A stretch of 64,000 nucleotides of DNA, from positions 66,148-130,147 of the forward strand of contig CAKPDM010000003.1 in assembly GCA_934148995.1 (NCBI GenBank), written 5' to 3'. Made by a program: the position numbers and the translations under genes. The notes under the pieces were generated by a model that did no database searches, was not told the origin of the DNA, and saw only the letters and a list, made by a program, of their open reading frames with translations. The DNA comes from an uncultured Bacilli bacterium. Lineage in GTDB: Bacteria; Bacillota_I; Bacilli_A; RF39; UBA660. This document shows positions 11,126 through 59,246 of the stretch, in pieces; position 1 is the first letter of the stretch, and each line of letters starts with the position of its first letter.

Positions 11126-11146
11126 AGCAATTTACTTCTTTTTTTC

Positions 11147-11174: not shown

Positions 11175-11179
11175 ATTAA

Positions 11180-11196: not shown

Positions 11197-11210
11197 TAAG
11201 GACTGATTTT

Positions 11211-11591: not shown

Positions 11592-11609
11592 GAGAAAGAA
11601 GGTATAAAA

Positions 11610-12152
11610 ATGGAACTAAAAGGAAGTAAAACAGAACAAAACTTAATGACAGCATTCGCAGGAGAAAGTCAAGCTAGAAATAAGTATACTTACTATGCTT
11701 CAAAAGCTAGAAAAGATGGTTATGAACAAATAGCAGCTATTTTTGAAGAAACAGCTAATAATGAAAAAGAACACGCTAAACTTTGGTTTAAACAATTACA
11801 TGGTGGAGAAATTCCTGATACTATGCAAAACTTAGAAGATGCTGCCGCTGGTGAAAACTATGAATGGACAGAAATGTACAAAGAATTTGCTGAAGTTGCT
11901 CGTCAAGAAGGGTTTGACAGAATAGCATATTTATTTGAAAGTGTTGGAAAAATTGAAGCAGAACACGAAAAAAGATATTTAACTCTATTAAGAAATGTTA
12001 AAGATGATAAAGTATTCCATAAAGATGGGGATAAGATTTGGATTTGTCGTAATTGTGGACATGTTTATGTTGGAAAAGATGCTTTAGATGTATGTCCAGT
12101 ATGTAATCATAAACAAAGTTTTATGGAAGTAAAAGCTGAAAATTACGAATAA
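11610..12152 (+). CDS. rbr: rubrerythrin
   Basis: Diiron ExxH motifs (EKEHAKLW, EAEHEKRY) and a C-terminal rubredoxin-like CRNCG...CPVCN. Confidence 0.9.
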   Translation: MELKGSKTEQNLMTAFAGESQARNKYTYYASKARKDGYEQIAAIFEETANNEKEHAKLWFKQLHGGEIPDTMQNLEDAAAGENYEWTEMYKEFAEVARQEGFDRIAYLFESVGKIEAEHEKRYLTLLRNVKDDKVFHKDGDKIWICRNCGHVYVGKDALDVCPVCNHKQSFMEVKAENYE

Positions 12153-12156
12153 TCAT

Positions 12157-12343
12157 AAAAAATTAAATTTTTTAAAAAATGGTGATTTTGCAAATTCAGG
12201 TCTAAATTTTCCTGAAAATAGCAAATTCCATAGCTGAAAATGCTAAATTCAGCAAAAAAGAAGGGTGAATTTTAAAAATTCGGTGTTTGCTCTTCTTTTT
12301 TATATGTGTTAGATTAAGTCTCACCGAAGGGAGGTGAGAAAAT
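12157..12343 (+). repeat. conserved leader of the Rpn-like element (copy 1), carrying GCAAATTC-type iterated motifs
   Basis: Blocks are shared with the reverse complement of 53268-53460: AAAAAATTAAATTT, GCAAATTCAGG, GGGTGAATTT, TGTTAGATTAA, GAAGGGAGGTGA. Confidence 0.6.
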
Positions 12344-13273: not shown

Positions 13274-13439
13274 GTTTTATCCTTTTCTATTGGGCAAAGA
13301 TATAACGGGAAAAGCTAAAATTTAAGTAGCTATTAGCAAAAACAAACAAAATAATACTATAATTGTAAGTAGTCTACTTATATTAAAAGTTGATAAAATT
13401 AGTGATTTAGAAGAATTAGGGAAAGGAGATAATGACTTG

Positions 13440-13730
13440 ATGAAAACAGTAGGAAGAATAAAAGAAGCTTCTCTTGATATTAATACGATTGGACTTTACG
13501 ATGCTGATTTAGAGCGCGAAAGAATTGAAAATGGTATTAGAAGTATATCATTTAAAGCTGGAATTGAACGTGGACTTGAACAGGGACTTGAATGCGGACT
13601 TGAGCAAGGAAGTACAAAAGAAAGAATTTCTATAATTAGCGCAATGCTTAATAATGGAATAAGTCAAGAAGAAGTTACTAAAATGACTGGTATACCAATA
13701 AAAGAAGTAAAAGCGATAAGAATTAACTAA
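13440..13730 (+). CDS. stand-alone Rpn C-terminal-domain ORF (partial tandem duplicate of 12986-13273)
   Basis: 13373-13730 is nearly identical to 12921-13273; one difference is ERG to ECG. It has its own AAAGGAGA SD followed by TTG-ATG. It could be a gene fragment or an expressed small protein. Confidence 0.45.
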   Translation: MKTVGRIKEASLDINTIGLYDADLERERIENGIRSISFKAGIERGLEQGLECGLEQGSTKERISIISAMLNNGISQEEVTKMTGIPIKEVKAIRIN

Positions 13731-13734
13731 AACC

Positions 13735-14553
13735 TTACCGCTTTTTATAAATCATTACTCCAGCTTTACTATCATCAAAGTTATAAATTTCCGTATTTGG
13801 AAAATTTAAAGTTTGAAAGATATTAGTATTATAAAGATAAGTCAATATTTCTCCATCATTATTTAATGGTAGAGTAGATAGCAATCTTCTATAACTATCT
13901 TTAGAGTTGTAATACATAATAGAAGAAAGATTAACTAAATCATAACCAGTTTTTAAACTATCAGCAAGCTTAAAAATATCACCTGTTAAATAAGTAATAT
14001 TAACACTACTAATCTTTTCTTGTAGTTTTTGGTAATTAACACTATTTTGAAGATAGATATTTTCACCTTTAATCTGAGTAGTAGAAAAAGGTTCACTAGA
14101 AAATAAAGTAGAATCTCTTAAATCACTATAATCAAAATAATTAAGTAAACTATCCCAAAATAGCCTTGTATCCCTATCTAAATTAGGACAAACCATATCA
14201 TACATATCATCATAATCTAAGTCATCAACATCTTGATAGAAAAATTTCATAAACTCTTCCAAAGAAAAACATTGTAAAGCAGCTATCTGTAAATTCAAAT
14301 AATACTTTGGAAAAGTACTTATATCAAAACCAGTAACATCATTACTACCAGCAAAAATACTATCTAAAATTTGATTACCAGAAGCGATTACAGAAAGAAC
14401 TTTATCCCTACCATTAAGTAAAAACTGGTACTTGCTAATCTCTTCATTAGTAGTTCTATAGATAAAAGAACTATTGTGGTAAGGAGAAGAAGTGACATTT
14501 TTTTTCTTCCTACTCACTATTTCTTGAGCCATTTTTATATCATCATAAAGCAT
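13735..14553 (-). CDS. DUF3419/BtaA-like SAM-dependent methyltransferase-fold protein
   Basis: VLSVIASGNQILDSI...VTGFDIS...YLNLQIAAL resembles the DUF3419 N-terminal SAM-binding region. Recognition is weak. Confidence 0.4.
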   Translation of the reverse strand: MLYDDIKMAQEIVSRKKKNVTSSPYHNSSFIYRTTNEEISKYQFLLNGRDKVLSVIASGNQILDSIFAGSNDVTGFDISTFPKYYLNLQIAALQCFSLEEFMKFFYQDVDDLDYDDMYDMVCPNLDRDTRLFWDSLLNYFDYSDLRDSTLFSSEPFSTTQIKGENIYLQNSVNYQKLQEKISSVNITYLTGDIFKLADSLKTGYDLVNLSSIMYYNSKDSYRRLLSTLPLNNDGEILTYLYNTNIFQTLNFPNTEIYNFDDSKAGVMIYKKR

Positions 14554-14594
14554 TGTAACCCTTCTTTCAATAGTGACTATTCTAACATTAATAA

Positions 14595-14636
14595 AAGAAA
14601 AAATCTATAAAGAACATTTGTACTCTTTATAGATTT
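14595..14636 (-). terminator. rho-independent terminator after the LCP gene
   Basis: Stem ATCTATAAAG / CTTTATAGAT, followed by a T-run on the minus strand. Confidence 0.6.
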
Positions 14637-14652
14637 TCTAACTTATTAATAA

Positions 14653-16698
14653 CTATTCACTAGGTTGATTATTATCTTTTTCTTCGGTTTTACTATCAGT
14701 TTCCGTATTCTTATTATCATCTTTAGAAGTATCAGTTTTATCATCACTCTTACTATCATCAGGAACAGTTGGTACTATATCACTCTTATTATTATCTTTT
14801 ACTGTGCTACCACCATTACTAGTAGTAGTGTTATCTTTAACTGTTGTATTTGATTTACTATCAGTAACAGTAGAAGATTCACTGCTACCACCAGATAAAG
14901 TAAGAACAACAGAACCACTAATTAAATCAATACGTTTATTAGCTGGATAACTTTGTGCAATTACATGACCAGAATTACCTTTAAAAGTAACTCTTACGCC
15001 ATTCCTAGTAGCCCAAGCTTGAGCAGTTGCCATCGTATCTCCAGTAAAATCAGGAAGAAGAGTGTACTTAAAAGCAGTTTTATAAGGACCAGTACCAGTT
15101 ACAACCTTTTCATAAGGAGTATTAATAGAGAAAGAAAACTCTTTAATCATCGTTGGGTCTTTCTTTCCAAGATTAACCTTCATTGCATTGATAATATCTT
15201 TTCTACTTTCCTTATTAGGAATATAATCCCAAAGAACAAGTCTACTTCGCTCATCATAAATCATTTGACCAGTACCAGATAAGAATAACTGTTCAATATT
15301 AAGTAAATCAGCATCATCTTTCTGTAAGGCATTATTAGTAATATCTTTAGCAATATCGTAGAAAGATAAAATTTGTTTTGTCGTAAAGTTAGTATCTAAG
15401 TTATTAGAAATAGCATCTAAAACACCCATTACTTGACTAACACTAGACATATCTTTAACTTTATTAATAAGTCCTTGAATAACAATCTGTTGATTAAGCC
15501 CACGGTCCAAATCACCATTGGCAAGTTGTTTTCTATTTCTAGCAAGAACTAAAGCTTGCTCACCATTTAAATGTTGTAAACCTTGTTTAATACAAATATA
15601 ACCTTCACGATTAGAATCATCAGTACATAAGTCTTTTGGGACTTCAACATCAATTCCACCTAAAGTATTAACTAAAGACACAAGTCCACGGAAGTTAATC
15701 TTCGCATAATAATCAATCTTAACATCAAAATAATTTTCAATCGTACTCATCATACAGTCAGTACCATAAGCAGCTGCATGTGTAATTTTATTTTCTGGAG
15801 TACCACTCCAACAAGAGATTGGTACATAACTATCTCTTGGAATACTAAGCATCGTCGCATTTAAAGTCTTAGGATTAAAAGTAATAAGTATCAAAGAATC
15901 ACCATTTGCAACGGTATTCTTAGATAACCCTTCATCAGTTGAATCAACACCCATTAACAAAATAGTAAACGGTTCACTAATACTCTTACCAGTAGAAGCA
16001 GTTTCTCTTTTACTAGTAGAACTCTTCAATAATTTCTTTTCTTTAGTATAAATAATCTTTGTATCTGTTGCTATATTTTGATAGGTTTCAATACTTTGGA
16101 ACAGACTAGGGTAGTCAGTAGTAATAAAAATAGCATTAATAGTACCATCATATAAATCAGCAATCATTGTACTATAGTCATCATACTTCTTAATCGTATT
16201 ATCACTATCTAAATCATTCTCCTTAATAATTAACTTTGGAATAATATAACCATCGGGAGAAGTCTTATCATTAAGTAAACCAATCTTTGCACTCTTAACA
16301 TCACTAATACTAGTTATACTACTATTCGCCATAGTAACTAAACTGCTAGAATAAGTTACATAAGTTTTATTAACATTTTCAAGTTTGCCATATAAATACA
16401 TAATGACAACACCAATAAACAAACTAAGTAACAAATAAAGTATTAAGAAGAAAGTAAGTAACTTCGCTTTATTTTCCTTCTTCTTTCGCTTCTTTTTCAT
16501 CTTCAAAAAGAAAATTAAATCAATTAATAAAAATACCCCAATAACAATATATCTGATAACTTCTTCAACGGGACCTAATAAATTAATTTCATAGATAGCA
16601 AAAAAGTTCGCAAATAAAGTTATTAAAGTTAAAATAAGTAACCAAAGCCGATACTTTTTCTTCTTTTTTTTCTTGGCTTTTTTTTCATCAATTTCCAT
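14653..16698 (-). CDS. LytR-CpsA-Psr (LCP) family cell-wall glycopolymer ligase with C-terminal PASTA-like domain and Ser/Thr/Asp/Lys-rich tail
   Basis: LCP core LLMGVDS...GDSLILITFNP...LSIPRDSYV...INFRGLVSLVNTLGGIDVEVP. TM helices. GGAGGAAAAGTGT-ATG favours a start at 16698 (MEIDEKK). Confidence 0.85.
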   Translation of the reverse strand: MEIDEKKAKKKKKKKYRLWLLILTLITLFANFFAIYEINLLGPVEEVIRYIVIGVFLLIDLIFFLKMKKKRKKKENKAKLLTFFLILYLLLSLFIGVVIMYLYGKLENVNKTYVTYSSSLVTMANSSITSISDVKSAKIGLLNDKTSPDGYIIPKLIIKENDLDSDNTIKKYDDYSTMIADLYDGTINAIFITTDYPSLFQSIETYQNIATDTKIIYTKEKKLLKSSTSKRETASTGKSISEPFTILLMGVDSTDEGLSKNTVANGDSLILITFNPKTLNATMLSIPRDSYVPISCWSGTPENKITHAAAYGTDCMMSTIENYFDVKIDYYAKINFRGLVSLVNTLGGIDVEVPKDLCTDDSNREGYICIKQGLQHLNGEQALVLARNRKQLANGDLDRGLNQQIVIQGLINKVKDMSSVSQVMGVLDAISNNLDTNFTTKQILSFYDIAKDITNNALQKDDADLLNIEQLFLSGTGQMIYDERSRLVLWDYIPNKESRKDIINAMKVNLGKKDPTMIKEFSFSINTPYEKVVTGTGPYKTAFKYTLLPDFTGDTMATAQAWATRNGVRVTFKGNSGHVIAQSYPANKRIDLISGSVVLTLSGGSSESSTVTDSKSNTTVKDNTTTSNGGSTVKDNNKSDIVPTVPDDSKSDDKTDTSKDDNKNTETDSKTEEKDNNQPSE

Positions 16699-16870
16699 AC
16701 ACTTTTCCTCCACTTATACCCTATAATTATAGCTAATTTTTTCAATACTTTCAACAAACCACCCTAAATAACAGTAAAATCTAGTGTAAAGTTTCATACA
16801 AAATATGAGCAAATAAGACAAATATCATTTATTTAATGATATAATCAAGATACTAGAGGAGGTGCCTTTA

Positions 16871-18679
16871 ATGAAAAGATGGAGTAAATTATCAATTTTC
16901 ATCTTAGTATTATTATTTATGACGCCTACTGTTTCTGCTAAAGAGTATATCGTTTTAAACACACCTAAAGCCTTTAAAGATAAACCAAGTGGTAGTAGAA
17001 TTACCTCTATTGGAGATGAAGGAGTCTTACCAACTCTTAGTAAAGTAGTAGTGCTTGATAAAAATAATAAAAGTGGATATGGTTGTAAATCTGCTTGGTA
17101 TAAAGTATCTTATCAAGATGTTATTGGTTATATTTGTTCAAGTGACCAAGTAATAAAGGAAGAAGTAGAAGTTGATACTGATGGCGACTTTGAAAAGGAA
17201 ATGTTAAGTAAAGGTTTCAATGAAAGCTATTTATCATCACTAAAAAGTCTTCATGAGAAACATCCAAACTGGATATTTAATGCCGTTAAGACTAATCTGG
17301 ATTATAATGATGCCATTACTAATGAAACGATTGGAGAAATATCATTAGTAAATGGAACAGATGAAACTTTAAGAAAGAAAGACGACTATGGAAACTATAT
17401 CGAGTCAGTTAAAGAAAAAGGCTGGTATCAAGCAAGTTCTAGTGCTGTCGGTTATTATATGGACCCTAGAAACTTCTTAACCGAAGAAGGAGTCTTTATG
17501 TTTGAAAACTTACAATATAATAAAGAAATTCAAACGAAAGATGCCCTAAAAAGTATTTTAAAAAACACTTTTATGGATAATGATGAATATGTAAATTACT
17601 TTATGAAAGCAGCTGATAAATCAGGAGCCAGTCCTACATATCTTGCTAGTCGTGTAAGACAAGAAAAAGGTGCAAATGGTTCAACTGGTGTTGATGGTGC
17701 TAAGTTTACTTTTGCTAAAGATAATGAATGTGCTAATCGTTATCGTAATAATGATAACTGGACAATACTTAATAACTGTGGAAATAATCAAGAATATAGT
17801 GGCATTTATAACTTTTATAATATTGGTGCTTATGGAACTTACCAAAGTCCTGTTATTAGAGGCCTAATCTGGGCAAATGGAGGTTATGATGCTAGTGTTA
17901 CTAGTTATATGCGACCTTGGGATAGTAAAGAAAAAGCTATTATCGGTGGAGCCCTTTATATTGTTAATGGTTATATAAATGCTAATCAACATACGCTTTA
18001 CTTCCAAAAATTTAATGTTAGTCCTTCAGCTTTAAACTCCACTTATACGCATCAATATATGTCTAATATTAAAGCCCCAGCCAGCGAAGCCTTATCAATC
18101 TATAAAGGCTATAAGAGTAATGACTTATTAGATAAAACCTATGAATTTTTAATACCAGTTTATGAAAAGATGCCAGGAGTAAGTGAAAGTCCTAAGACTG
18201 ATGATGATAAACCAGTAACACCTCCAGAAGAAGTACCTGTAATTAAGATAGATGATGCTATCATTGCAAGTAGTTATCGCTTAAATAGTAATTACATTTC
18301 TGGAATAGAAGTAAATACCTCTAAGACTAATCTAGAAAATAAATTAAAAACAATCTATGAAGGCTTATCAGTTGTTAGTGTCAAAGATAAATATGGCAAC
18401 AATAAAAATGATGCCTTAGCAACAAATGATGTAATTACTATCTCTAACTCTAAAGATACAAAAGAATATACGGTCGTTATTTATGGTGATAATAATGGTG
18501 ATGGAACAACTAGTATCATTGACTTATTAAGAATTCAAAAGTATCTACTTGGTAATAACAACTTAACCGATGCTGAATTAATCGCTAGTGATTTAGATAA
18601 AGACGGTTTAATAACTGTAGTAGATTTATTAAGAATGCAAAAAAGTTTATTAGGATATAGTAAAATAGAACAGAAATGA
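16871..18679 (+). CDS. secreted SH3b / glucosaminidase-like peptidoglycan hydrolase with C-terminal dockerin module
   Basis: Signal peptide MKRWSKLSIFILVLLFMTPTVSA. SH3b-like WYKVSYQDVIGYICS. Central ASPTYLASRVRQEKG region. Two Ca-binding dockerin repeats: DNNGDGTTSIIDLLRIQKYLLG and DLDKDGLITVVDLLRMQKSLLG. Confidence 0.7.
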   Translation: MKRWSKLSIFILVLLFMTPTVSAKEYIVLNTPKAFKDKPSGSRITSIGDEGVLPTLSKVVVLDKNNKSGYGCKSAWYKVSYQDVIGYICSSDQVIKEEVEVDTDGDFEKEMLSKGFNESYLSSLKSLHEKHPNWIFNAVKTNLDYNDAITNETIGEISLVNGTDETLRKKDDYGNYIESVKEKGWYQASSSAVGYYMDPRNFLTEEGVFMFENLQYNKEIQTKDALKSILKNTFMDNDEYVNYFMKAADKSGASPTYLASRVRQEKGANGSTGVDGAKFTFAKDNECANRYRNNDNWTILNNCGNNQEYSGIYNFYNIGAYGTYQSPVIRGLIWANGGYDASVTSYMRPWDSKEKAIIGGALYIVNGYINANQHTLYFQKFNVSPSALNSTYTHQYMSNIKAPASEALSIYKGYKSNDLLDKTYEFLIPVYEKMPGVSESPKTDDDKPVTPPEEVPVIKIDDAIIASSYRLNSNYISGIEVNTSKTNLENKLKTIYEGLSVVSVKDKYGNNKNDALATNDVITISNSKDTKEYTVVIYGDNNGDGTTSIIDLLRIQKYLLGNNNLTDAELIASDLDKDGLITVVDLLRMQKSLLGYSKIEQK

Positions 18680-18689
18680 GATGATTTAA

Positions 18690-20021
18690 ATGTCTAAAAA
18701 GAAAATATTTGTCTTCCTTCTTTCCTTTTTCTTTTTTTGTGGGGTAGAAGAAGTAAGTGCAGCGACGATTAGTGTAGCTGGAACAACAAGTAGTGGTGTT
18801 GTTGGGGGAACAGTTACTGTCAATGTCACTGTTAATGAACCATCAGGACTAGGAGCTTGGGAGTTCAATGTCGCTTATGATAGTGATATTTTAACTCTTA
18901 CTAGTGGACAAACTCACGTTGTAGATTATGTTCAAAGTCCAGGACAAACAAGAAAAACTTATTCTTATAAGTTCAATATTAAAAAAGAAGGAAATGCTAG
19001 TGTTTCTATCGCTTCTTCAAATTTCGTTTCTTATGATGAACAAACAAGAACAGCTCCTAAGGACTCTACTACTATCAACTGTACTAAAAGAGAAACTGTC
19101 ATCGCTAATTATAGTAGCAATAATAACTTAGCTTCCCTTGGTGTAAAAGATTACCAGATATCTCCTACCTTCAATAAAAATACTCTTAACTATACCCTAG
19201 AAGTAGAACATGATGTCGAAAAAATAACTATCGAAGGAAGCAAAGAAGACTCTAAAAGTAGAGTTACTGGTCTTGGTGAAAAAGAAGTTCACGAAGGAGC
19301 TAACGCTTTCGATATTACTGTTACCGCCGAAAATGGTGCTACTAAAACTTATCACTTAACCGTAACAGTCAAAGAACTAGACCCTATAACCGTTAAAGTC
19401 GATAAAAAAGAAATGACTCTTATTCAACAAGAAAAAGAACTAGAAGGAAAAGTACCAGCTCACTTTGAAAAAACAACAGTAAAAGTAAATGATAAAGATG
19501 TTCTAGCTTATGAAAATAAGACCTTAAAATTAAAAATAGTTGCTCTAAAAGATGATAAAGGTAATATCGATTTCTATGAATATCAAGATAATAACTATAA
19601 ACTATATAATCAAATAAGTAGTGGAAATGTCACAATTCATATCTTAACAGATGAAAAACAAATACCTAAAAACTATAAATTTTACAAATTAAAAATAGAT
19701 AATAAAGAATATATTGGATATAAACTAAATAAGAAAGATGACTTTTTCCTAATTTATGGAGAAAATGTTGAAACTGGTAGAAAAAGTTTATATAATTATG
19801 ATGAGGTAGAAAAAACTGTTCAAAGATATAATAAGGTAGATACTAAAAATAGTGTTAATAACAGTAACCAAGAAAAGTATATTATCTTAGGTTTATTAGG
19901 ACTAGTTTTATTACTTCTTATCATCTTACTAGGACTATTAAATAACAATAAATCTAGTAAGAAGAGACCAAAAATCAAAAAGAGAATTGGAGAAAGAAAC
20001 AATGGACAGAAAGAATTCTAA
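18690..20021 (+). CDS. membrane-anchored cohesin-like / cadherin-like beta-sandwich protein
   Basis: Signal peptide. Cohesin-like GGTVTVNVTVNEPSGLGAWEFNVAYDSDILTL. Cadherin-like-sandwich motif NNNLASLGVKDYQISPTFNKNTLNYTLEV...TYHLTVT. C-terminal TM helix plus a basic tail. Confidence 0.6.
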   Translation: MSKKKIFVFLLSFFFFCGVEEVSAATISVAGTTSSGVVGGTVTVNVTVNEPSGLGAWEFNVAYDSDILTLTSGQTHVVDYVQSPGQTRKTYSYKFNIKKEGNASVSIASSNFVSYDEQTRTAPKDSTTINCTKRETVIANYSSNNNLASLGVKDYQISPTFNKNTLNYTLEVEHDVEKITIEGSKEDSKSRVTGLGEKEVHEGANAFDITVTAENGATKTYHLTVTVKELDPITVKVDKKEMTLIQQEKELEGKVPAHFEKTTVKVNDKDVLAYENKTLKLKIVALKDDKGNIDFYEYQDNNYKLYNQISSGNVTIHILTDEKQIPKNYKFYKLKIDNKEYIGYKLNKKDDFFLIYGENVETGRKSLYNYDEVEKTVQRYNKVDTKNSVNNSNQEKYIILGLLGLVLLLLIILLGLLNNNKSSKKRPKIKKRIGERNNGQKEF

Positions 20022-28910: not shown

Positions 28911-30536
28911 GTGATTAAATTGGCAGAATTTAAAAGAAGAAAAAAAAGACAAGATTTTAAAGAAAAAAATTATAAAAATAATACTAATGACTACCACGAA
29001 ATATCTTTAACAAAAATGGGTAAAAGACAGTTAGTGCTCACTGTATTATCTATTTTTGGAGTAACAATGTTGTCAATAGGCAGTACCTTCGCTATATTTA
29101 CAGTATCATCTAAATCTGCCGAATACAATGTAATTAAAACAGGTACTTTAAACATCAACTTTGCAGCAGATGCATCCTCAACCGTAGGACTTAATAATGC
29201 GCTACCAATGTCTGATACAGATGGCTTTGCACAGTCAGGAACTACTTTCACCATAACAAACACCGGAAGTCTACCTGCAAATTATTCGGTATCTTTAAAA
29301 GATGATACCGATATGGTAACCCAAGATAATTGTAGTGCTAAGCAATTAGCAAAAACAAATATTAAATACAGCTTAGACGGTTCAACCGCCAGTCTTTTAT
29401 CAACAGCAATTGATAGTGAATTAATAAGTGGAACATTAAATTCAGGAGAAAGTAAAACATTTACCTTAAAACTATGGATAAAAGAAGATGCTACTAACGA
29501 AGTATTAAATAAACATTATCACGGAAAAATAGTAGTAGATGCTATACAAGAAGGTGCACCAGTTCTTGCTACTACAGCATTAATTAAAAAAGCAAATCCA
29601 GAAAGCTTAGATTATAATAGTGCAACAGATGAACAAAAGAATCAAATGTGGACATTTACTCATGAAGCAACAACTCAATTAGGAGCAACTACAGATTATC
29701 GTTATATCGGAGCAAATCCTAATAACTACGTCAAATTTAATGATGAATTATGGCGAATAATCGGTGTCTTCGATGTCGATGATGGAACAGGGAAAATAGA
29801 GAAAAGATTAAAGATTATAAGAAATGAATCAATAGGTAATTATTCGTGGGACAATAAGGATACATCAACAGGAGCAGAAACTGATTATGGAAAAAATAAT
29901 TGGCCTGACGCTAGACTTAATTATTTACTAAATGAAGACCATGATAGTGAAACCTATGGTGGAAGTTTATATTGGAATCGAAAAAGTGGAACTTGCTATA
30001 TAGGTCAAAATAATGCAACTACTTCCTGTGATTTCACGTCTGCTGGTTTAAGTGATAGTGCTAAAGAAATGATCGGGGATGCCAAGTGGTACTTGGGAAG
30101 TACTGCTAGTTATACTAGCTCATCAAACGGATTAGCATCACATTTTTATGGATATGAGAGAGGAACAACAGTATATAGTGGAAGAAGTACATCATGGATA
30201 GGAAAAGTAGGATTAATGTATCCAAGTGATTATGGATATGCAACAAGTGGAAATAGTTCCACATCAAGAGCAACATGCTTAGCCAAAGCGATGTATAGCT
30301 GGGATGGAGCAAGTGCATGTTATGAAAATGATTGGTTGTCTAAATCCAGTTATATGTGGTCCCTTTCGCCTTACTCGTCTAATGGTGGCTACGTGTTCGG
30401 TGTCCGCAGTAGTGGGTATGTCTACCGCGATGATGCGAACTATGCTTACGGCGTGTGGCCAGTCGTTTATCTAAAGTCAACAATTAAGGTGACCACAGGA
30501 ACAGGAAGTAGTGATTCACCATTCATTCTAGAATGA
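28911..30536 (+). CDS. secreted protein: TasA/camelysin-like N-terminal domain plus C-terminal lectin-like domain with an A-depleted 3' tract
   Basis: Signal anchor ending SIGSTFAIFT, then KTGTLNINF and NALPMSD...TFTITNTGSLPANY (compare TasA GGGTWAAFND...SGTLDL). C-terminus WSLSP...GVWPVVYLKS. The start is uncertain: GTG 28911, TTG 28920 or ATG 29016. Confidence 0.65.
   Translation: MIKLAEFKRRKKRQDFKEKNYKNNTNDYHEISLTKMGKRQLVLTVLSIFGVTMLSIGSTFAIFTVSSKSAEYNVIKTGTLNINFAADASSTVGLNNALPMSDTDGFAQSGTTFTITNTGSLPANYSVSLKDDTDMVTQDNCSAKQLAKTNIKYSLDGSTASLLSTAIDSELISGTLNSGESKTFTLKLWIKEDATNEVLNKHYHGKIVVDAIQEGAPVLATTALIKKANPESLDYNSATDEQKNQMWTFTHEATTQLGATTDYRYIGANPNNYVKFNDELWRIIGVFDVDDGTGKIEKRLKIIRNESIGNYSWDNKDTSTGAETDYGKNNWPDARLNYLLNEDHDSETYGGSLYWNRKSGTCYIGQNNATTSCDFTSAGLSDSAKEMIGDAKWYLGSTASYTSSSNGLASHFYGYERGTTVYSGRSTSWIGKVGLMYPSDYGYATSGNSSTSRATCLAKAMYSWDGASACYENDWLSKSSYMWSLSPYSSNGGYVFGVRSSGYVYRDDANYAYGVWPVVYLKSTIKVTTGTGSSDSPFILE
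30357..30472 (+). other. adenine-depleted, GC-enriched tract (candidate DGR-type variable region)
   Basis: By hand count, about 16 A in about 116 nt. Codons such as tcg, gtg, ggc, cgc and gcg are rare elsewhere in the window. The tract encodes WSLSPYSSNGGYVFGVRSSGYVYRDDANYAYGVWPVVY. Confidence 0.45.
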
Positions 30537-30577
30537 GAGTGATGAGATCTTAAAACTTCGACTAATACATAAAATAG

Positions 30578-30617
30578 ATCTAAAGTTATTTAAAAGATTG
30601 ACTTTAGATTTTTTTAT
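30578..30617 (+). terminator. rho-independent terminator
   Basis: ATCTAAAGT ... ACTTTAGAT followed by TTTTTTT. Confidence 0.6.
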
Positions 30618-30755
30618 GAGAAAAGATAAATTATCAGGATAAAAAAACTGGTAGCATGTTTATTTTTAGAACTTGAAAATTTAACAGATGTTTCAAATAT
30701 ATAATATTTTTATCTAGATTTATGATATATTAGTTGTAGTTAGTGAGGGATTAAT

Positions 30756-40992: not shown

Positions 40993-41895
40993 ATGAACAA
41001 AAGCAAATTAGCTATAGTAATCGCTTTAATAGCAGTTAGTATGGTTACTTTAGTAGGCAGTAGTTATGCATTATTTACCAAAAGTTTAGAAGGAACGAAA
41101 AAAGTATCAATTCAAACTGGAACTTTAAAGGTGGATTTTTCAGAAGGAGATAGCATCAAATTAGAAAACTCTGCTCCCATGAGTGATAGTGCTGGAACGA
41201 ATACTACTCCTTATACTTTTACTATAGAAAATACAGGTAATGTAAATGCTTTCTATACAATTAGAAATGAGGAAGACAGTGCTAGTACACTAGATACTGT
41301 TTATCTAAAATATAGATTAGTAGGTGATAATGGCTATGACTCTGGTATAAGAGTGTTATCAGCAGCGGGAACTGATGGTTATTTAGCAACTACTTCAACT
41401 TTAGATACAGGAAAGACTGTTACTTATAAGTTATATATGTGGATTTCTCAAGATGCCACAAATGATATTCAAGATAAGATTTATCAAAGTAAAATAGTTG
41501 TTCAAAGTGTAAGTAATCTAGTAAGTCACTATGCTTTTGGAAATCCAACAGAAGCTGATAAGATTAACTATCTAGATGTCATTAATGCGAATGGTTATAA
41601 AGTATTAAATAGATTGTATGGAACAGAAAAAGCTGTTTGTATCTATAAAGATGATACTTTAGAATGTTTCAAAGAAAATAATTATCAAGAAGAGGCTAGT
41701 CATTTAAAAAGTGTCTTTGGAGAGAGTAATTGTACTACTACTGAATCTGGTACTAGTTGTACTGTAACAACAAATAATGATACATTCTACTGTAATGCTG
41801 ATAGTAGCTCATTATATTGTGTTTATAACTCAGAAGCAGCTGTTTGTAAAATTGACAGTTCAGGTACAGCTTCTTGTTCAACAAGTGTTAAATAA
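40993..41895 (+). CDS. secreted TasA/camelysin-like N-domain protein with Cys-rich C-terminus
   Basis: LVGSSYALFT...QTGTLKVDF...NSAPMSD...YTFTIENTGNVNAFY. The C-terminal 90 aa contain about 10 Cys. Confidence 0.6.
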   Translation: MNKSKLAIVIALIAVSMVTLVGSSYALFTKSLEGTKKVSIQTGTLKVDFSEGDSIKLENSAPMSDSAGTNTTPYTFTIENTGNVNAFYTIRNEEDSASTLDTVYLKYRLVGDNGYDSGIRVLSAAGTDGYLATTSTLDTGKTVTYKLYMWISQDATNDIQDKIYQSKIVVQSVSNLVSHYAFGNPTEADKINYLDVINANGYKVLNRLYGTEKAVCIYKDDTLECFKENNYQEEASHLKSVFGESNCTTTESGTSCTVTTNNDTFYCNADSSSLYCVYNSEAAVCKIDSSGTASCSTSVK

Positions 41896-41926
41896 TAAAA
41901 AAACTCTAGGCATTTCTCCTGGAGTT

Positions 41927-43312
41927 TTAATTTTCATCTATTTCAGTTTCATCAGTTTCTATCTTTGGAAGATCTGATTGTGTTTCTTCATCATCTGGAT
42001 CATTAATAGGAATTATCTCTGGAACTTCATCATCATTGTCTTCATTTTCTTCCTGTTCATTCTTTTGAGAAATAACAGTGGCATCTTCACTAATTAAACC
42101 AATCTTCATCAAAGTATCTAAGTCATCATCAATATCAATAATACGATAAATTTCTTCAAAGGAAGTAGTACCATCAAGGACTTTATAAAGACCATCTTGT
42201 AACATCGTAATAACATCAGAGTTGTAAACTATTTTCTGAAGATTTTCTTTCTTCATTTCCTCTTCATTTAAAGCATTTCTAATTTCATCGTTAATCATTA
42301 ATACTTCTTGAATTGCAACACGGTCGTGATAACCACCAGAACAGTATTCACATCCATCATGATTAGCAACATAAGTTTCTTCTACATCTTGATGAAGTGC
42401 TAATCTAAATACTTTCTTTTGATATGGAGTAGTAGCTTCCTTCTTGCGGCAATGTTTACAAAGCATTTTTGCAAGTCGTTGAGAAATAATTCCTGTTAAA
42501 GCACTAGATAATAAGTATCTTTCAACATTCATATCAAGTAGACGTTCGATAGTGCTTAATGAGTTATTAGTATGGACAGTTGATAAAACCAAATGGCCAG
42601 TGATAGAGGCACGAACAGCGATTTTTGCTGTTTCACTATCACGAATTTCTCCGATAAGTATGACATTCGGGTCCTGACGTAAGATAGATCTTAAAACAGT
42701 CGCAAAGTCAAGACCAATTTCACTATTAACTTGGACTTGATTTAAACCTTCAAGATTCATTTCGATTGGGTCTTCAACTGTTATAATGTTAGTTTCCTTC
42801 TTATTAAGAACTTGTAATATTGAGTAAACAGTTGTACTTTTACCAGAACCAGTAGCCCCAGTTATTAAGATAATACCATTTGGTTCTTGAATCATCTTTT
42901 TAAGTTTTACTAAGTTTTTTTCATTAAATCCTAAAGAATCAATACCTGCTAAGCTTCTTGAATAGTCAAGAATACGGATAACGCACTTTTCTCCTTCATT
43001 AGTTGGAAGGGTAGAAACACGAGTTTCCATTGGAACTCCTTTAATTACTCCCTTGATAGCACCATCTTGCGGAAGACGACTTTCCGTAATATTCATATTA
43101 GCTAGCAGTTTAATTCTAGTGATTAAATTTCTTTCATATATTTTGTCAATTTTTGTATAATCTCTTAAATCTCCATCGACACGCATACGTACCATCAAGT
43201 ATTCTTCTCGAGGGTCAAAGTGAATATCACTTGTACCATGAGTAGCGCCATATGCTAAGATATCATCAACGACATTAACGACGGGAGTTTTAGTCATATC
43301 ATAAGAAACCAT
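41927..43312 (-). CDS. type II/IV secretion ATPase (PilB/GspE/ComGA-like) with acidic C-terminal tail
   Basis: Walker A GATGSGKST, Asp box, Walker B ILIGEIRD, His box, tetracysteine CKHC...CEYC, and a roughly 60-aa D/E-rich tail. Confidence 0.85.
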   Translation of the reverse strand: MVSYDMTKTPVVNVVDDILAYGATHGTSDIHFDPREEYLMVRMRVDGDLRDYTKIDKIYERNLITRIKLLANMNITESRLPQDGAIKGVIKGVPMETRVSTLPTNEGEKCVIRILDYSRSLAGIDSLGFNEKNLVKLKKMIQEPNGIILITGATGSGKSTTVYSILQVLNKKETNIITVEDPIEMNLEGLNQVQVNSEIGLDFATVLRSILRQDPNVILIGEIRDSETAKIAVRASITGHLVLSTVHTNNSLSTIERLLDMNVERYLLSSALTGIISQRLAKMLCKHCRKKEATTPYQKKVFRLALHQDVEETYVANHDGCEYCSGGYHDRVAIQEVLMINDEIRNALNEEEMKKENLQKIVYNSDVITMLQDGLYKVLDGTTSFEEIYRIIDIDDDLDTLMKIGLISEDATVISQKNEQEENEDNDDEVPEIIPINDPDDEETQSDLPKIETDETEIDEN

Positions 43313-43397
43313 GTTATCAACCCCTTCAATTTTGATATGGTATTTTACTATAATCTATTATATAATAGGTTTAAGATTGGTGCAAGGGGTGAGATGT

Positions 43398-43937
43398 GTG
43401 AAAAGAAAACATCCATTAAACAAAAGAGGCTTTATGCTTTTAGAAACCTTAATTGTTAGCATTTTTGTAATGACTATTTTTGCAATGCTTTACACTAATT
43501 TATTTCCATTACTTGGTGAATACGAACGATATCGAACTTATGATAGTGTGGAAGGAACTTATATTGCACACTGGGCGAGAAAAATAGTTTTAAATGGTTT
43601 AGGTGATTGGTTATTTACAACTGCAGATAATAATGGTTATGTCAATATTTCTGATTGTAAACTGTATACTAAAAATGAAATGGATAGCTGGTGTGCTAAT
43701 TTCAAAAGAACTAATAAAGTGTCAAAGATCTATTTAACTACTTACTCAACGCAAAAATTTAAGAATCATGTTAATAGTACATCTTATCAACGTGACTTTA
43801 AAGATTACGCCAGTTATATACCGACATATAGTAGAAATACTACAAAGATAAATAACGGTAAGTATTATCATGTTATTGTTGAATATGCCAAAAATGATAC
43901 TAATAACTATGGAATAATGGAGGTTAATAGGAACTAA
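43398..43937 (+). CDS. prepilin-type (pseudopilin) protein
   Basis: Class III leader KRG/FMLLETLIV. GTG 43398 follows AAGGGGTGAG. The tracked upstream extension overlaps the ATPase gene. Confidence 0.65.
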   Translation: MKRKHPLNKRGFMLLETLIVSIFVMTIFAMLYTNLFPLLGEYERYRTYDSVEGTYIAHWARKIVLNGLGDWLFTTADNNGYVNISDCKLYTKNEMDSWCANFKRTNKVSKIYLTTYSTQKFKNHVNSTSYQRDFKDYASYIPTYSRNTTKINNGKYYHVIVEYAKNDTNNYGIMEVNRN

Positions 43938-44500
43938 TGAAGATTAATAATAAAGGAATGACTTCTATTGAACTCTTAATCACTTTTGCTATTTTGTCAT
44001 TTGTTGTAACTGGTATGTTTGATGTTGTTTTAAACTATAAAGATAAAGAACAGATAGAGTCAATTAGAGGAAGTGTTGTTCAATATGAGAACAGCTTAGA
44101 AAAATTAATACAAGATGATTTCATAAAAGGTCATTTAAAAAGTGTAGCAGTAAATACTACTAATACAAACTTACTAACTGCTACTTTTCAGATGGAAAAA
44201 GATGTGACTACTGGTAGTGCTTATGCCACCACTCTTCAAATCGATATTGTAAATGGCGTAATTAGTTATGGTAAAACTGCTGAAGTCATTAAGTACCCAA
44301 TCCCAAAGTTTGATACTAGTTATGGAAGTAATTCGACTATAACATTAGCAATTGATAAGAGTAGAACGTTGATTGAGACTAGCGGCGATAGTAAAAATCA
44401 ATTTGTTAAAATAAATATTGCTTTTACTCATCCGAACTTCGAGGATGGCGAATTAACTTTCACCATTGCTAGTCCGGTTAATTACCCTTATAATCTTTAA
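43937..44500 (+). CDS. prepilin-type (pseudopilin) protein
   Basis: NKG/MTSIELLITFAIL N-terminal cleavage/methylation-type motif. Confidence 0.65.
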   Translation: MKINNKGMTSIELLITFAILSFVVTGMFDVVLNYKDKEQIESIRGSVVQYENSLEKLIQDDFIKGHLKSVAVNTTNTNLLTATFQMEKDVTTGSAYATTLQIDIVNGVISYGKTAEVIKYPIPKFDTSYGSNSTITLAIDKSRTLIETSGDSKNQFVKINIAFTHPNFEDGELTFTIASPVNYPYNL

Positions 44501-55411: not shown

Positions 55412-55488
55412 AATGATAGATTAATATCAAAAAGGTATAAATCTATCTTTTTTGTTAAATACTAAAATAGAAAGTGTAGGTTTTGATC

Positions 55489-57357
55489 ATGAAGAATAAA
55501 AAGAAAGATTTCATTTTAATATTAATAGCTTTTGTCTTACTAATAGCAATAGTAGGTATCAGTTATGCAGCATTTAACTATGTGGGAACTGGTCAAAAAT
55601 TAAATACAATCACAACCGGTACAATAACTATGGAATATGTAGAAAGTACCAATGTTATTTCTATGAATAATGCCCTTCCAACAACAGATGCAACAGGAAA
55701 GAAAAGGCTAAATACTGGAGAATATTTTGATTTTACAGTTAAATCATCAATTGCAGGAAATACCGATATCAACTATGAAATAGCAGCCAAAGAAGAAAGT
55801 GGAAATACTTTTAGCGGAAGTAATATCAGATATTATTTGACAACAGTAGATGCCAATGGAAAAGAAACAGAGGTAATGGCACCTCGTACATATTATGAAG
55901 AACCATCAGGTAATGGATATACAGGCCGCCCTGCTGATATGATGAGTCTATATACTGGAAACTTAAATCAACAAGGAACAACAGAAGTAAAATATAGATT
56001 AAGATTATGGGTAGATGAAAGTTACAATCCTCAAAATGATAATGGAGGACTAATTTACAAAGTAAAAGTAAATGTTTATGGTCAAACAAGTGACACTGTA
56101 GCTCAAGCAGAAGATACATATTGTAAAGATAATGGCTTTACAAAACTATCAGATTGTATGCTTGTTATGAACAATCACGAAGCATCAGCAGATGCAGCAG
56201 GAGCAGCAATCGTAGCAAAAGGAACACCAAACTTTGCAAAAATTGCACCCAATAGTAGTGAAACAGATGGATTATATGCAGCAGACGATGATGATGGAAC
56301 CAGTTATTATTATCGAGGAGCAGTAAGAAACAACTATGTATCATTCGCTGGATTTATGTGGAGAATAATCCGTCGAAATGGTGATGGAAGTATTCGTTTG
56401 ATCTATTCAGGAAAAACAACATCAGATACAGGAACAGCAGTAACAATTGGAAACTCACAATATAATGAAAAATATTGGGATCCAACATATGTAGGATATA
56501 AATATAACGAGAAGTTCTCACTACATGAAAGTAATGGAACAACAGGATATAATTGGTTTACCAATACACAAAAATATAACTATGGAACAGGTTATACATT
56601 TGATGAATCAACGAAGAAATTCACATTAACAGGAGAGATCAAGCAACTAACCTGGAAAGATAATCATGACGAAATAGTAAAAAATAATTTATATAGTTGC
56701 TTAAATACCTCATGTAACGTAGTTTATAAAGTAACAGGATATCAGAATGAAACAACAATGACGGTACAACCAATCTCATATAGTAGTGATAGTTATGCTG
56801 ATACTTTAACTAATACAACAAACTCAACAATAAAGACAACATTAGATACATGGTATAAGAATAACATGACAGCATATACATCATACTTAGCAGACACAAC
56901 ATTCTGTAATGATAGAAGTATAAATTGGGGATCAGGATATTTAACAACACCAACTACCACATATGGTGCATATGGACGTTTAGCAGAAAGAAGAACACCA
57001 AGCTTAAAATGTGCACAAGCTAATGATAAATTTACACTTACAAATGAGAGTGCAAAATTAGATTATCCAGTGTCATTAATAACAGCAGATGAGGCATCAA
57101 TGGCCGGAGGAGTTTATAATATAGCAAATAGTAATTATTATCTATATAATGGCCAATACACCTGGACGCTGTCTCCGTCTAGCTTCCGTTCTAACAACTC
57201 TATTGCGTACGTTTGGAGCGTGCGTCCTTCGGGCAGTTTGTACGCTTGGTATGACGTTACTGGTCCCATCGGGGCCCGTCCAGTTATCAACCTAAAGGCA
57301 GATACACAGATAACTAAGGGAGATGGAACCTCCTTAAATCCATATGTTGTTAAATAA
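55489..57357 (+). CDS. secreted TasA-like N-domain / lectin-like C-domain protein, tandem paralog A
   Basis: IVGISYAAFN...TTGTITMEY...NALPTTD. Central YYYRGAVRNNYVSFAGFMWRIIRRNGDGSIRLIYSG. C-terminus WTLSPS...GARPVINLKAD. Confidence 0.7.
   Translation: MKNKKKDFILILIAFVLLIAIVGISYAAFNYVGTGQKLNTITTGTITMEYVESTNVISMNNALPTTDATGKKRLNTGEYFDFTVKSSIAGNTDINYEIAAKEESGNTFSGSNIRYYLTTVDANGKETEVMAPRTYYEEPSGNGYTGRPADMMSLYTGNLNQQGTTEVKYRLRLWVDESYNPQNDNGGLIYKVKVNVYGQTSDTVAQAEDTYCKDNGFTKLSDCMLVMNNHEASADAAGAAIVAKGTPNFAKIAPNSSETDGLYAADDDDGTSYYYRGAVRNNYVSFAGFMWRIIRRNGDGSIRLIYSGKTTSDTGTAVTIGNSQYNEKYWDPTYVGYKYNEKFSLHESNGTTGYNWFTNTQKYNYGTGYTFDESTKKFTLTGEIKQLTWKDNHDEIVKNNLYSCLNTSCNVVYKVTGYQNETTMTVQPISYSSDSYADTLTNTTNSTIKTTLDTWYKNNMTAYTSYLADTTFCNDRSINWGSGYLTTPTTTYGAYGRLAERRTPSLKCAQANDKFTLTNESAKLDYPVSLITADEASMAGGVYNIANSNYYLYNGQYTWTLSPSSFRSNNSIAYVWSVRPSGSLYAWYDVTGPIGARPVINLKADTQITKGDGTSLNPYVVK
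57163..57285 (+). other. adenine-depleted hypervariable tract (candidate DGR variable region) of paralog A
   Basis: By hand count, about 16 A in about 123 nt. Invariant codons avoid A: tgg acg ctg tct ccg tct, gcg tac gtt tgg, cct tcg ggc, ggg gcc cgt. Confidence 0.5.
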
Positions 57358-57377
57358 TAGAAAGGAGGAAACATTTT

Positions 57378-59246
57378 ATGAAAAAACGAAGAAAAGAATT
57401 TTTAATGATCTTGTTTGTTTTAGTTTTATTAATTACTATAGTAGGTATCAGTTATGCAGCATTTAACTACGCGGGAACTGGTCAAAAGTTAAATACAATC
57501 ACAACTGGTACAATAACTATGGAATATGTAGAAAGTACAAACACAATTGCAATGACAGATGCATTGCCCACAACAATAGCAACCGGAAAAACAAGGTTGA
57601 AAGCTGGTGAATATTTTGATTTTACAGTAAAATCATCAATCACCGGTAATACAGATATCAACTATGAAATAGCAGCCAAAGAAGAGAATGGAAATACTTT
57701 TAGCGGAAGTAATATCAGATATTATTTGACAACAGTAGATGAAAACGGAAAAGAAACAGAAGTAATGGCACCTCGTACATATTATGAAGAAACATCAGGT
57801 AATGGATATACAGGTCGTCCTGCTGATATGATGAGTCTATATACAGGAAACTTAAATCAACAAGGAACAACAGAAGTAAAATATAGATTAAGATTATGGG
57901 TCGATGAAAGTTACAATCCTCAAAATGATAATGGAGGACTAATTTACAAAGTAAAAGTAAATGTTTACGGTCAAACAAGTGACACTGTAGCTCAAGCAGA
58001 AGATACTTATTGTAAAGATAATGGTTTTACAAAACTATCAGATTGTATGCTTGTTATGAATAATCATGAAGCATCAGCAGATCTAGCAGGAGCAGCAATC
58101 GTAGCCAAAGGAACACCAAACTTTGCACAAATTGCACCAAATAGTGATGAGACTGATGGCTTATATGCAGCAGACGATGATGATGGAACAAGCTATTATT
58201 ATCGAGGAGCAGTAAGAAATAATTATGTGTCATTCGCTGGATTTATGTGGAGAATTATCCGTCGAAATGGTGATGGAAGTATTCGTTTGATCTATTCAGG
58301 AAAAACAACATCAGATACAGGAACAGCAGTAACAATTGGAAATTCACAGTATAACGGAAAGTATTGGGATCCAACATATGTAGGATATAAATATAACGAG
58401 AAGTTCTCACTACATGAAAGCAATGGAACAACAGGATATAACTGGTTTACCAATACTCAAAAATATAATTTTGGAACAGGCTACAGTTTTGACGAATCAA
58501 CAAAGAAATTCACTTTAACAGGAGATATCAAGCAACTAACCTGGAAAGATAATCATGACGAAATAGTAAAAAATAATTTATATAGTTGCTTAAATACATC
58601 ATGTAACGTAGTTTATAAAGTAACAGGATATCAGAATGAAACAACAATGACGGTACAACCAATCTCATATAGTAGTGATAGTTATGCTGATACTTTAACT
58701 AATACAACAAACTCAACAATAAAGACAACATTAGATACATGGTATAAGAATAACATGACAGCATATACATCATACTTAGCAGACACAACATTCTGTAATG
58801 ATAGAAGTATAAATTGGGGATCAGGATATTTAACAACACCAACTACCACATATGGGGCATATGGACGTTTAGCAGAAAGAAGAACACCAAGCTTAAAATG
58901 TGCACAAGCCAATGATAAATTTACACTTACAAACGAAAGTGCAAAATTAGATTACCCAGTGTCATTAATAACAGCAGATGAAGCATCAATGGCTGGAGGC
59001 GTTTATGGAATAGCAAATAGTAATTATTATCTATATAATGGACAATACACCTGGACGCTGTCTCCGTCTTACTTCTACTCTTACTACTCTTTTGCGTACG
59101 TTTGGCGCGTCGGACCTTCGGGCAGCTTGGACGTTAGTATTGTCTCAAATTCCTTCGGGGCCCGTCCAGTTATCAACCTAAAGGCTGATACACAGATAAC
59201 TAAGGGAGATGGAACAGTTCTAAATCCATATGTTGTTAAGTCTTGA
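57378..59246 (+). CDS. secreted TasA-like N-domain / lectin-like C-domain protein, tandem paralog B
   Basis: Near-identical to paralog A, except the first roughly 100 aa (scattered changes) and the 3' tract. GAAAGGAGG SD. Confidence 0.75.
   Translation: MKKRRKEFLMILFVLVLLITIVGISYAAFNYAGTGQKLNTITTGTITMEYVESTNTIAMTDALPTTIATGKTRLKAGEYFDFTVKSSITGNTDINYEIAAKEENGNTFSGSNIRYYLTTVDENGKETEVMAPRTYYEETSGNGYTGRPADMMSLYTGNLNQQGTTEVKYRLRLWVDESYNPQNDNGGLIYKVKVNVYGQTSDTVAQAEDTYCKDNGFTKLSDCMLVMNNHEASADLAGAAIVAKGTPNFAQIAPNSDETDGLYAADDDDGTSYYYRGAVRNNYVSFAGFMWRIIRRNGDGSIRLIYSGKTTSDTGTAVTIGNSQYNGKYWDPTYVGYKYNEKFSLHESNGTTGYNWFTNTQKYNFGTGYSFDESTKKFTLTGDIKQLTWKDNHDEIVKNNLYSCLNTSCNVVYKVTGYQNETTMTVQPISYSSDSYADTLTNTTNSTIKTTLDTWYKNNMTAYTSYLADTTFCNDRSINWGSGYLTTPTTTYGAYGRLAERRTPSLKCAQANDKFTLTNESAKLDYPVSLITADEASMAGGVYGIANSNYYLYNGQYTWTLSPSYFYSYYSFAYVWRVGPSGSLDVSIVSNSFGARPVINLKADTQITKGDGTVLNPYVVKS
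59052..59171 (+). other. adenine-depleted hypervariable tract (candidate DGR variable region) of paralog B
   Basis: Same scaffold as 57163-57285, with about half of the intervening codons different and one codon fewer. Confidence 0.5.

Follow-up and report, generated by a model that had tools for sequence, protein, structure and literature searches.

A putative diversity-generating retroelement target without an adjacent cassette in a predicted surface protein gene of an uncultured human-gut Bacilli lineage

Described retroelements and the locus under study

The diversity-generating retroelement (DGR) of Bordetella phage BPP-1 comprises a variable region (VR) in mtd, avd as an accessory gene, a template repeat (TR) and the reverse transcriptase (RT) gene brt. 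Here we describe a 64,000-nucleotide (64-kb) stretch from an uncultured Bacilli bacterium (GenBank assembly GCA_934148995.1, contig CAKPDM010000003.1; hereafter the window), in which the adenine-poor 3′ end of one gene is, judging by its alignment with templates of related genomes, almost certainly the VR of a DGR target gene and the product of DGR writing. That this DGR VR lies at a locus from which the cassette is absent is also very probable. As in the BPP-1 system, TR and VR differ only at TR adenines, in the first and second positions of AAC and AAT codons, and the VR occupies the extreme C-terminus of a predicted lectin-like domain. The cassettes found in related genomes likewise include an Avd-like gene and an RT with YMDD and IGxxxSQ motifs, the VR and TR diverge in a GC-rich segment at the position of the initiation of mutagenic homing (IMH/IMH*) pair, and a GC-rich inverted repeat follows the target at the cassette-bearing loci. 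The element departs from that of BPP-1 in being chromosomal, with no phage genes seen nearby, in having an RT operon convergent with TR and target, on the opposite strand, and in carrying an extra small open reading frame (ORF) with a weak MutS_I match and another of 103 aa. In the 64-kb window, cassette and hairpin are wholly absent. By analogy with BPP-1, the RT would copy a TR transcript, misincorporating at random opposite adenines, and the cDNA would replace the VR from its 3′ boundary; a DUF6273 (C-lectin-like) domain would be recoded over about 15 codons at its tip, probably altering what the surface protein binds.

Three other groups of described systems are pertinent. In Treponema denticola TvpA and in the DGRs of Lineage 4, targets located tens to hundreds of kb from RT and TR are still diversified (Wu et al. 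2018, PMC5758913); the situation would be the same here if a template were located elsewhere in the genome, with the differences that a 64-kb window is free of TR and RT and that the cassette-less alleles look static across samples. The tentaclins (PMC10743442) and proteins of Faecalibacterium prophages (PMC11792537) possess a variable domain related to DUF6273, for which a C-type-lectin-like fold carrying the VR was modeled, and in gut phages DUF6273 has been recognized as a domain that DGRs target (PMC10743442). In our protein, by contrast, the link to DUF6273 is transitive through paralogs, the domain harbors a large insertion and stays under the Pfam thresholds, and the carrier, encoded on the chromosome, would be a cell-surface protein anchored in the membrane, having an Ig-like N-terminal domain and no phage homolog. 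The type V pilus adhesin DGRs of Bacteroides (bioRxiv 10.1101/2024.11.15.621889) are similar in that a chromosomal DGR of a gut commensal diversifies a surface or adhesive protein at its tip, and also in that paralogs of our target are found beside pilus-type genes (PilB-like ATPase and prepilin-like genes at 41927-44500; N_methyl proteins in the related contigs L007 and L017). The phylum, the protein family and the pilus type are different, and the adhesin role is in our case a predicted one. A new DGR target is in itself unsurprising, gut Firmicutes being rich in DGRs; its assignment to an uncultured human-gut Bacilli lineage, in a protein family that has no Pfam assignment, is a new and useful annotation.

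The adenine-poor tract and its template in related genomes

The tract at 30357-30472 forms the 3′ end of the ORF 28911-30536. Its base count (A16 C28 G34 T38 = 116 nt; GC 53%) agrees exactly with the roughly 16 adenines that had been counted by hand in an earlier reading of this DNA made from the letters alone (the sequence-only reading), and its composition deviates from that of the window as a whole (A 39%, G+C 29%): only 0.05% of all 116-nt segments contain 16 or fewer adenines, and 0.07% reach an equal or higher G+C content. When 116-nt segments were scanned for at most 18 A together with a GC of at least 50, just three places were recovered (30344-30474, 57150-57293, and 59043-59180), the latter two being VR-like tracts of the paralogous genes at 55483-59246. 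As that reading had also proposed, the A-containing codons of the tract encode Tyr, Asn, Ser, and Asp, to which a single CCA has to be added. Within the 64-kb window, a sensitive blastn search (word size 7) detected no second copy of the tract.

Species-representative genomes (one genome per species) were scanned with a pattern derived from the inferred fixed positions of the tract, leaving the variable codon positions open. This revealed a single locus (L018), a contig of the metagenome-assembled genome (MAG) 'Bacilli bacterium HGM10844', with two matches 393 nt apart. The contig carries an ortholog of the target gene with 83.5% nucleotide identity, and the two matches proved to be the VR of the ortholog and an adenine-rich TR (31 A in 104 nt), about 105 nt long and rich in AAC and AAT, which begins ~290 nt past the VR. 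The adjoining cassette (L018:633-3164; also in L019-L036) consists of four ORFs on the strand opposite to target and TR, namely a small MutS_I-like ORF (123 aa, weak match), an Avd-like gene, the RT, and a fourth ORF of 103/109 aa, and the operon converges on the TR. The RT (368 aa; RVT_1, E = 2.7e-16) exhibits the motifs YMDD and IGNYSSQ and is ~30% identical to the RTs of Bordetella and Faecalibacterium phages. Its best match among Protein Data Bank (PDB) entries was the 328-aa reverse transcriptase 8ub7 (E = 1.4e-24), which we take to be the Bordetella DGR RT, and group II intron and retron RTs followed at 5e-6 or worse. The Avd-like ORF (113 aa in L018; 111-113 aa across the orthologous loci) matched the Pfam family bAvd at 3.8e-6 and the NCBIfam DGR Avd model at 1.4e-8, both under the curated cut-offs. 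Since the mutated adenines lie on the coding strand of the target, the template RNA would have to come from separate transcription running counter to the RT operon. A perfect palindrome of 15 bp (L018:738-770) and a terminator-like hairpin (1091-1123) enclose TR and spacer.

The alignment of window positions 30359-30465 with the L018 TR (L018:848-954) is gapless. Of its 18 mismatches in a 104-nt core, 17 coincide with the 31 TR adenines (hypergeometric P = 2.9e-10), which bears out the footprint of adenine-specific mutagenic retrohoming that the sequence-only reading had expected, and 70 of the 71 non-adenine positions are identical in genes that otherwise share only 83.5% of their nucleotides. 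The VR of L018 itself differs from the L018 TR at TR adenines only, and 11 distinct TR-VR pairs from cassette-bearing contigs exhibited 170 mismatches at TR adenines and 2 elsewhere. The TR adenines are distributed over codon positions 1, 2, and 3 as 17:13:1. Consistently, 0-1 of the 37 third codon positions in the VR differ between lineages, against 25-47% of third positions outside the VR.

The sole non-adenine mismatch between the window VR and the L018 TR is an AAC codon in the window that reads ACC in the TR. At the second base of this codon, the window, L001, and L048 have A, whereas L007 has G (AGC); hence, the four cassette-less alleles would have been written from an AAC template, and the alignment implies for the window VR a template nearly identical to that of L018, with AAC in place of ACC. 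At the 3′ boundary, all VRs read GGCCAG-TCGTTTATCTAAAG (...CCAGTCG) and all TRs GGCCAG-CCGATAAATTTAGG (...CCAGCCG), a divergence that occupies the position of, and would fit, a putative IMH/IMH* pair. The TR-type 3′ flank for this VR type is GGCCAGCCGATAAATTTAGG. A metagenome scan with the TR 3′ flank returned eight loci, four of which are real TRs; the other four, three marine TARA-type contigs and an unrelated metagenome contig of 342,812 nt (L044), were set aside as chance matches. The ~70 nt between VR and stop codon (window 30466-30536; homologous in L018, L007, L017, and L037) lie outside the TR-templated part and are near-identical, in lineages that differ at the above 25-47% of third codon positions elsewhere in the gene. 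This segment may be constrained for target recognition, or it may move with the cassette by recombination.

Comparison of the tract among strains, as the sequence-only reading had advised, showed the hypervariability of the protein to reside in it. Among 60 aligned homologs, the backbone was well conserved and column entropy was highest at aa 441-480, where the variation is confined to fixed columns (WSLSPxSSxxxxVFxVxxxGxVxxxxAxx..xGVWPVV). The closest comparison, with L001 (96% protein identity), showed the 1.6-kb gene to be identical except for a 55-nt patch at 30074-30128 (15 changes, mostly third-position or synonymous), a 6-nt indel, 21 substitutions within 30372-30448, and one at 30468; the substitutions in the latter two places all fall on codon position 1 or 2. 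Compared with L048 (window 29311-30311), the gene shows identity over its first 400 nt, ~20% divergence in the center, and near-identity in the 3′ flank. The target gene is thus visibly a recombination mosaic in these alignments and, because it is mosaic, junctions or VRs may have moved by recombination. A synonymous-site clock for the last rewriting was dropped, given the mosaic gene and the unusual conservation of the ~70 nt past the VR. In L010, the region from the target to PNPase occurs twice in inverted orientation (1322-2938 and 10001-11617) with identical VRs, which is most likely a palindromic scaffolding artefact.

In cassette-bearing relatives, an identical RT protein and TR were found in contigs from more than 20 samples, and the VR was different in all seven contigs that reach it (7/7). 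A second cassette lineage, with an RT 86% identical and a different TR, and a third TR type exhibited the same behavior. A prophage origin of the target was considered and dropped, as a scan of viral contigs with the VR/TR pattern gave zero matches and the target protein has no phage homolog.

These results bear directly on the proposal that the tract is a compositional island unrelated to DGRs, be it horizontally acquired GC-rich DNA, a codon quirk of a Gly/Tyr/Ser-rich loop, or the outcome of cassette-type gene conversion. Such an origin would accord with a 64-kb window devoid of TR and RT, and the patch at 30074-30128 demonstrates that short-tract recombination is real in the target gene. 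It is opposed by the near-perfect template that orthologous loci carry beside an RT and an Avd-like gene, by the placement of mismatches on template adenines (17:1 for the window, 170:2 for the cassette-bearing contigs), by the limitation of the variation to codon positions 1 and 2, and by the absence of the GC-rich, A-poor signature from non-diversified DUF6273 paralogs (genes 2-5 of contig L045). The adenine-specific pattern effectively refutes the island, to which we assign a negligible likelihood. The coordinates of the VR, its gene and the associated features are collected in table 1.

Table 1. Coordinates of the features discussed, as positions in the 64-kb window.
Feature	Position	Strand	Remarks
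Target gene	28920..30536	+	538 aa from TTG 28920; mechanical ORF from GTG 28911
DUF6273-like (C-type-lectin-like) domain, predicted	29697..30485	+	aa ~228-490 counted from ATG 29016, boundaries approximate; insertion of ~110 aa
Variable region (VR)	30359..30465	+	homologous to TR L018:848-954; BLAST of L018 against the window
Span of positions matching the 31 TR adenines (AAC/AAT codons)	30372..30448	+	strain-variable sites
3′ boundary, point of VR/TR divergence	30466..30480	+	VR GGCCAG-TCGTTTATCTAAAG against TR GGCCAG-CCGATAAATTTAGG
Intergenic junction to tRNA/rRNA methyltransferase gene	30537..30755		no GC-rich hairpin, TR or cassette; downstream sequences compared
Two tandem paralogous targets	55483..59246	+	VRs at about 57163-57283 and 59052-59169; second, separate DGR

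A locus without a cassette, probably static or possibly rewritten from afar

The window itself carries none of the machinery. No RT-like ORF was detected in its 64 kb, a Y.DD scan of ORFs of at least 120 aa giving chance matches only; TR flanks, spacer, and hairpin remnants were missing at up to 5 substitutions, and an Avd-like gene was absent. The expectation of a cognate TR near an RT gene was accordingly borne out next to the ortholog in related genomes and failed within the 64-kb window. Homology of the window to the cassette-bearing loci ends at the stop codon. Past this codon, a GC-rich hairpin (CCGCC..CTGATGGGCGACGTCCATCAAGGCGG) is located in L018, L037, L007, and L017, with z-scores of only -1.7 to -2.7; it folds in L018, L007, and L017 and not in the window or L001, and its place in the window, L001, and L048 is taken by AT-rich sequence leading into the methyltransferase gene. 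Three arrangements were observed: target, hairpin, TR, cassette, and PFOR (L018, L019, L037, L040, and L041); target, hairpin, large prepilin-like genes, and methyltransferase (L007 and L017); and target directly followed by the methyltransferase (window, L001, and L048). L037 and L017 share 98.4% identity as far as 149 nt beyond the stop codon, and only one of them has a TR.

Recurrence of VRs was assessed in 90%-identity clusters of the target proteins. Among the cassette-less alleles, P0001 was found in 9 contigs with 4-15 backbone differences, none of which fell in the VR, P0009 in 21 contigs, and P0007 in 33 contigs, alongside a length variant (P0248) with the same VR; the window's own allele (P0241) occurred in 3 contigs. 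Clusters from lineages with cassette-bearing contigs exhibited 10-16 differences, all or nearly all of them in the VR (in cluster pairs, 10-15 in the VR and 0-1 outside), and at the nucleotide level 11-17 VR differences on a 100%-identical upstream sequence or backbone. Close lineages thereby offer a natural comparison between an adjacent cassette, where VRs vary on identical backbones, and an absent one, where the same VR recurs in dozens of contigs, and this comparison provides a handle on how quickly a VR freezes after template loss and on whether the hairpin is needed for remote targeting.

Because the window contains no RT, TR, or remnant of them, because the hairpin is deleted, and because cassette-less alleles recur unchanged, we lean, by a modest degree of belief, towards a VR that is now static or orphaned and at most rarely rewritten. 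An inactive relic, which the sequence-only reading had named as one outcome should template and RT be missing and the tract be invariant, remains a live reading for this genome.

Several observations weigh against a static VR or qualify the evidence for it. The window, L001, and L048 share one junction and yet harbor unrelated VRs, which differ only at template-adenine sites. All four cassette-less VRs (window, L001, L048, and L007) imply an AAC template that is absent from the sampled cassettes. The shared junction and the implied AAC template are together most simply explained by retrohoming after the junction had formed, that is, by a template acting in trans. The non-adenine sites of the VR exhibit no decay. 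The counts of frozen alleles derive in part from exact-match look-ups and from few clusters, and distances of more than 100 kb between a remote DGR target and the RT have been documented (PMC5758913), to be set beside an RT/TR search that covered the 64-kb window. As to the domain that would be recoded, neither AlphaFold2 model (mean predicted local distance difference test, pLDDT, 45 and 38) is usable for the fold of the variable domain.

The alternative that these points favor is a DGR cassette of the same type elsewhere in the genome, at a distance exceeding 29 kb on the upstream or 33 kb on the downstream side, which carries the AAC-variant template and rewrites the VR in trans at a lower rate than target-adjacent cassettes do. 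The VR would then still be an active remote target, as is known for cellular DGRs (PMC5758913). Unrelated VRs at a common junction, in the case of the window and L001 within genes otherwise identical except for the 55-nt patch, the convergence of all cassette-less VRs on one unseen template variant, and the undecayed fixed positions would all follow. A cassette is moreover easily overlooked in MAGs: the contigs with RTs closest to that of L018 are all 6.6 kb or shorter, and several in L027-L036 break off at one common point of the target gene, ~200 nt upstream of the VR. Short-read assemblies apparently break at these cassettes, and the absence of a cassette from MAGs is for this reason weak evidence of its true absence. 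However, each cassette-less allele is invariant over many samples and over backbone divergence, whereas cassette-adjacent alleles vary between samples on identical backbones; the GC-rich hairpin, present at all cassette-bearing loci, is deleted here; and in a mosaic gene, recombination could have spread the junction or imported the VRs. We therefore hold remote rewriting of this VR as a tentative possibility, with perhaps a third of our belief, and retain the static or orphaned VR as the reading we prefer.

The target protein, its paralogs and a second retroelement

The likeliest start of the target gene is the TTG at 28920, which is preceded by the ribosome-binding site AGGTGA. The protein comprises, in order, a basic N-terminal segment, a hydrophobic anchor, an Ig-like β-sandwich, and a DUF6273-like C-terminal half that begins with YRYIGANPNNYVKFNDELWRIIG and ends in the VR. 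Its 7628 homologs all stem from metagenomes or MAGs, mostly of the human gut (Hadza and other cohorts), and no Pfam domain was found among them. Pfam and NCBIfam scans of three proteins yielded nothing useful, the target protein having no DUF6273 match at E ≤ 0.1, and a profile search of PDB sequences with the target protein returned nothing at E ≤ 10. Weak DUF6273 (PF19789) matches were obtained for 10 of 43 family members (best E = 0.0016). Tandem paralogs in contig L045 reach DUF6273 at 42 bits, above the Pfam cut-off of 23.5, and the window protein can be aligned with either end of their DUF6273 domain (E = 1e-24 and 7e-8). Through this transitive link, the VR is placed on the last strands of a predicted DUF6273-like domain with an insertion.

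An AlphaFold2 model of the full-length protein (43 sequences; pLDDT 45 overall) presented the N-terminal domain as a β-sandwich with pLDDT 70-84, and a model of the C-terminal domain (46 sequences including the paralog family) reached pLDDT 38. When the N-terminal domain was compared by fold, the matches were limited to generic Ig-like (MSP/PapD-like) ones at E > 0.002. The sequence-only reading had considered the protein TasA-like; none of the Pfam, NCBIfam, PDB profile, or fold searches supported a relationship to TasA or camelysin (Peptidase_M73). The N-terminal anchor may resemble the TasA signal peptide.

The combination of a hydrophobic anchor, a lectin-like tip, and neighboring pilus-type genes points to a membrane-anchored or secreted surface protein, possibly an adhesin. 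A 300-aa paralog with only the anchor and the N-terminal β-sandwich, and no VR domain, is encoded within 40993-44500. Its gene adjoins that of a PilB/GspE-like ATPase (minus strand, 41927-43312) and a pair of prepilin-like genes (43311-44500), and a gene of PilC/GspF type is located at 61924-63369. In L007 and L017, proteins of 908-980 aa with prepilin N-methylation motifs (N_methyl) are encoded downstream of the target gene. This genomic context hints that the protein family may work with a type IV pilus-like apparatus.

The resemblance of the protein to the tracts at 57163 and 59052, noted from the letters alone, was recovered as 36% identity over 74 aa at the VR region, in addition to 22% identity over the N-terminal 300 aa. 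The different scaffold that had been attributed to the target was not, as the whole architecture is common to it and the genes at 55483-59246, and its VR ends a DUF6273-like domain. The two paralogs belong to a second DGR, which was seen in the related contigs L046 and L047 only. There, the target genes flank non-coding arrays with 17 template units (L046:11878-21300) and 7 units (L047:11878-15373) at a spacing of ~425 nt, each unit comprising a TR-type 3′ flank (GGGGCCCGTCCAG-ATTCCTACTAC), a framework sequence of its own, and a conserved promoter-like element. Past the arrays lie a MutS_I-like ORF and a bAvd gene and, in L047, also an RT of 375 aa, with 42% identity to the first; in L046, the RT position falls beyond the end of the locus examined. 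It is internal array units that the VRs match (0-1 non-adenine mismatches), and not the RT-proximal one: the L046 VR at 11683 corresponds to the unit at 12481 and the L047 VR at 8634 to the unit at 12856. One VR of this second DGR is a clean mosaic of two array units, and the alignments suggest that the array templates are used interchangeably. The target proteins of the second DGR were nearly all unique across samples. Tandem arrays of distinct DGR templates were not described in the literature searched, which is not proof of novelty. A candidate template repeat at 56169-56291 of the window was rejected, this segment being a T-poor, GC-enriched, Ala/Gly/Lys-rich linker (..ADAAGAAIVAKGTPNF..) of the first paralog that is 92% identical in the second.

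The arrays raise the question of whether the multi-template DGR of the 55-59 kb paralogs could rewrite the VR at 30359-30465 from a matching unit. The contig with the 17-unit array shares its sample with a cassette-less ortholog of the target at similar coverage, and array units besides the RT-proximal one demonstrably serve as templates. None of the 24 array units seen (0/24), however, has the ends of this VR, CCCTTTCGCCT ... GGCGTGTGGCCAG, identity between the two RTs is only 42%, and the allele in that sample is P0007, unchanged in 33 contigs, whereas the protein clusters of the second DGR's targets are hypervariable. We regard such cross-writing as very improbable. In agreement with the sequence-only reading, which had noted differing invariant nucleotides and called for a separate template, the TR of this VR type is distinct from the templates of the paralogs, whose RT also differs to the extent just given.

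If, contrary to the static VR that we favor, a remote DGR with an unseen AAC template rewrites the VR in trans despite the loss of the hairpin, the clade would run two DGRs on one paralogous surface-protein family. One would be a single-template system acting on adjacent or remote targets, and the other would draw on arrays of 7-17 templates, swapping whole VR frameworks and generating mosaic VRs. We judge this combination unlikely.

The L045 paralogs serve as a built-in control. This contig (188,854 nt) carries five of them in tandem at 10001-19731, with 620, 605, 602, 614, and 616 aa. The GC-rich, A-poor VR signature is present in the first only; in each of the remaining four, two DUF6273-type domains are combined with an ordinary composition, which identifies the signature as a mark of the DGR-targeted copies.

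Directly past the second paralog of the window, SpoIIGA-like and sigma-E-like genes were found at 59299-60764, which suggests a spore-forming lineage, despite the label 'Bacilli bacterium' of the related MAG.

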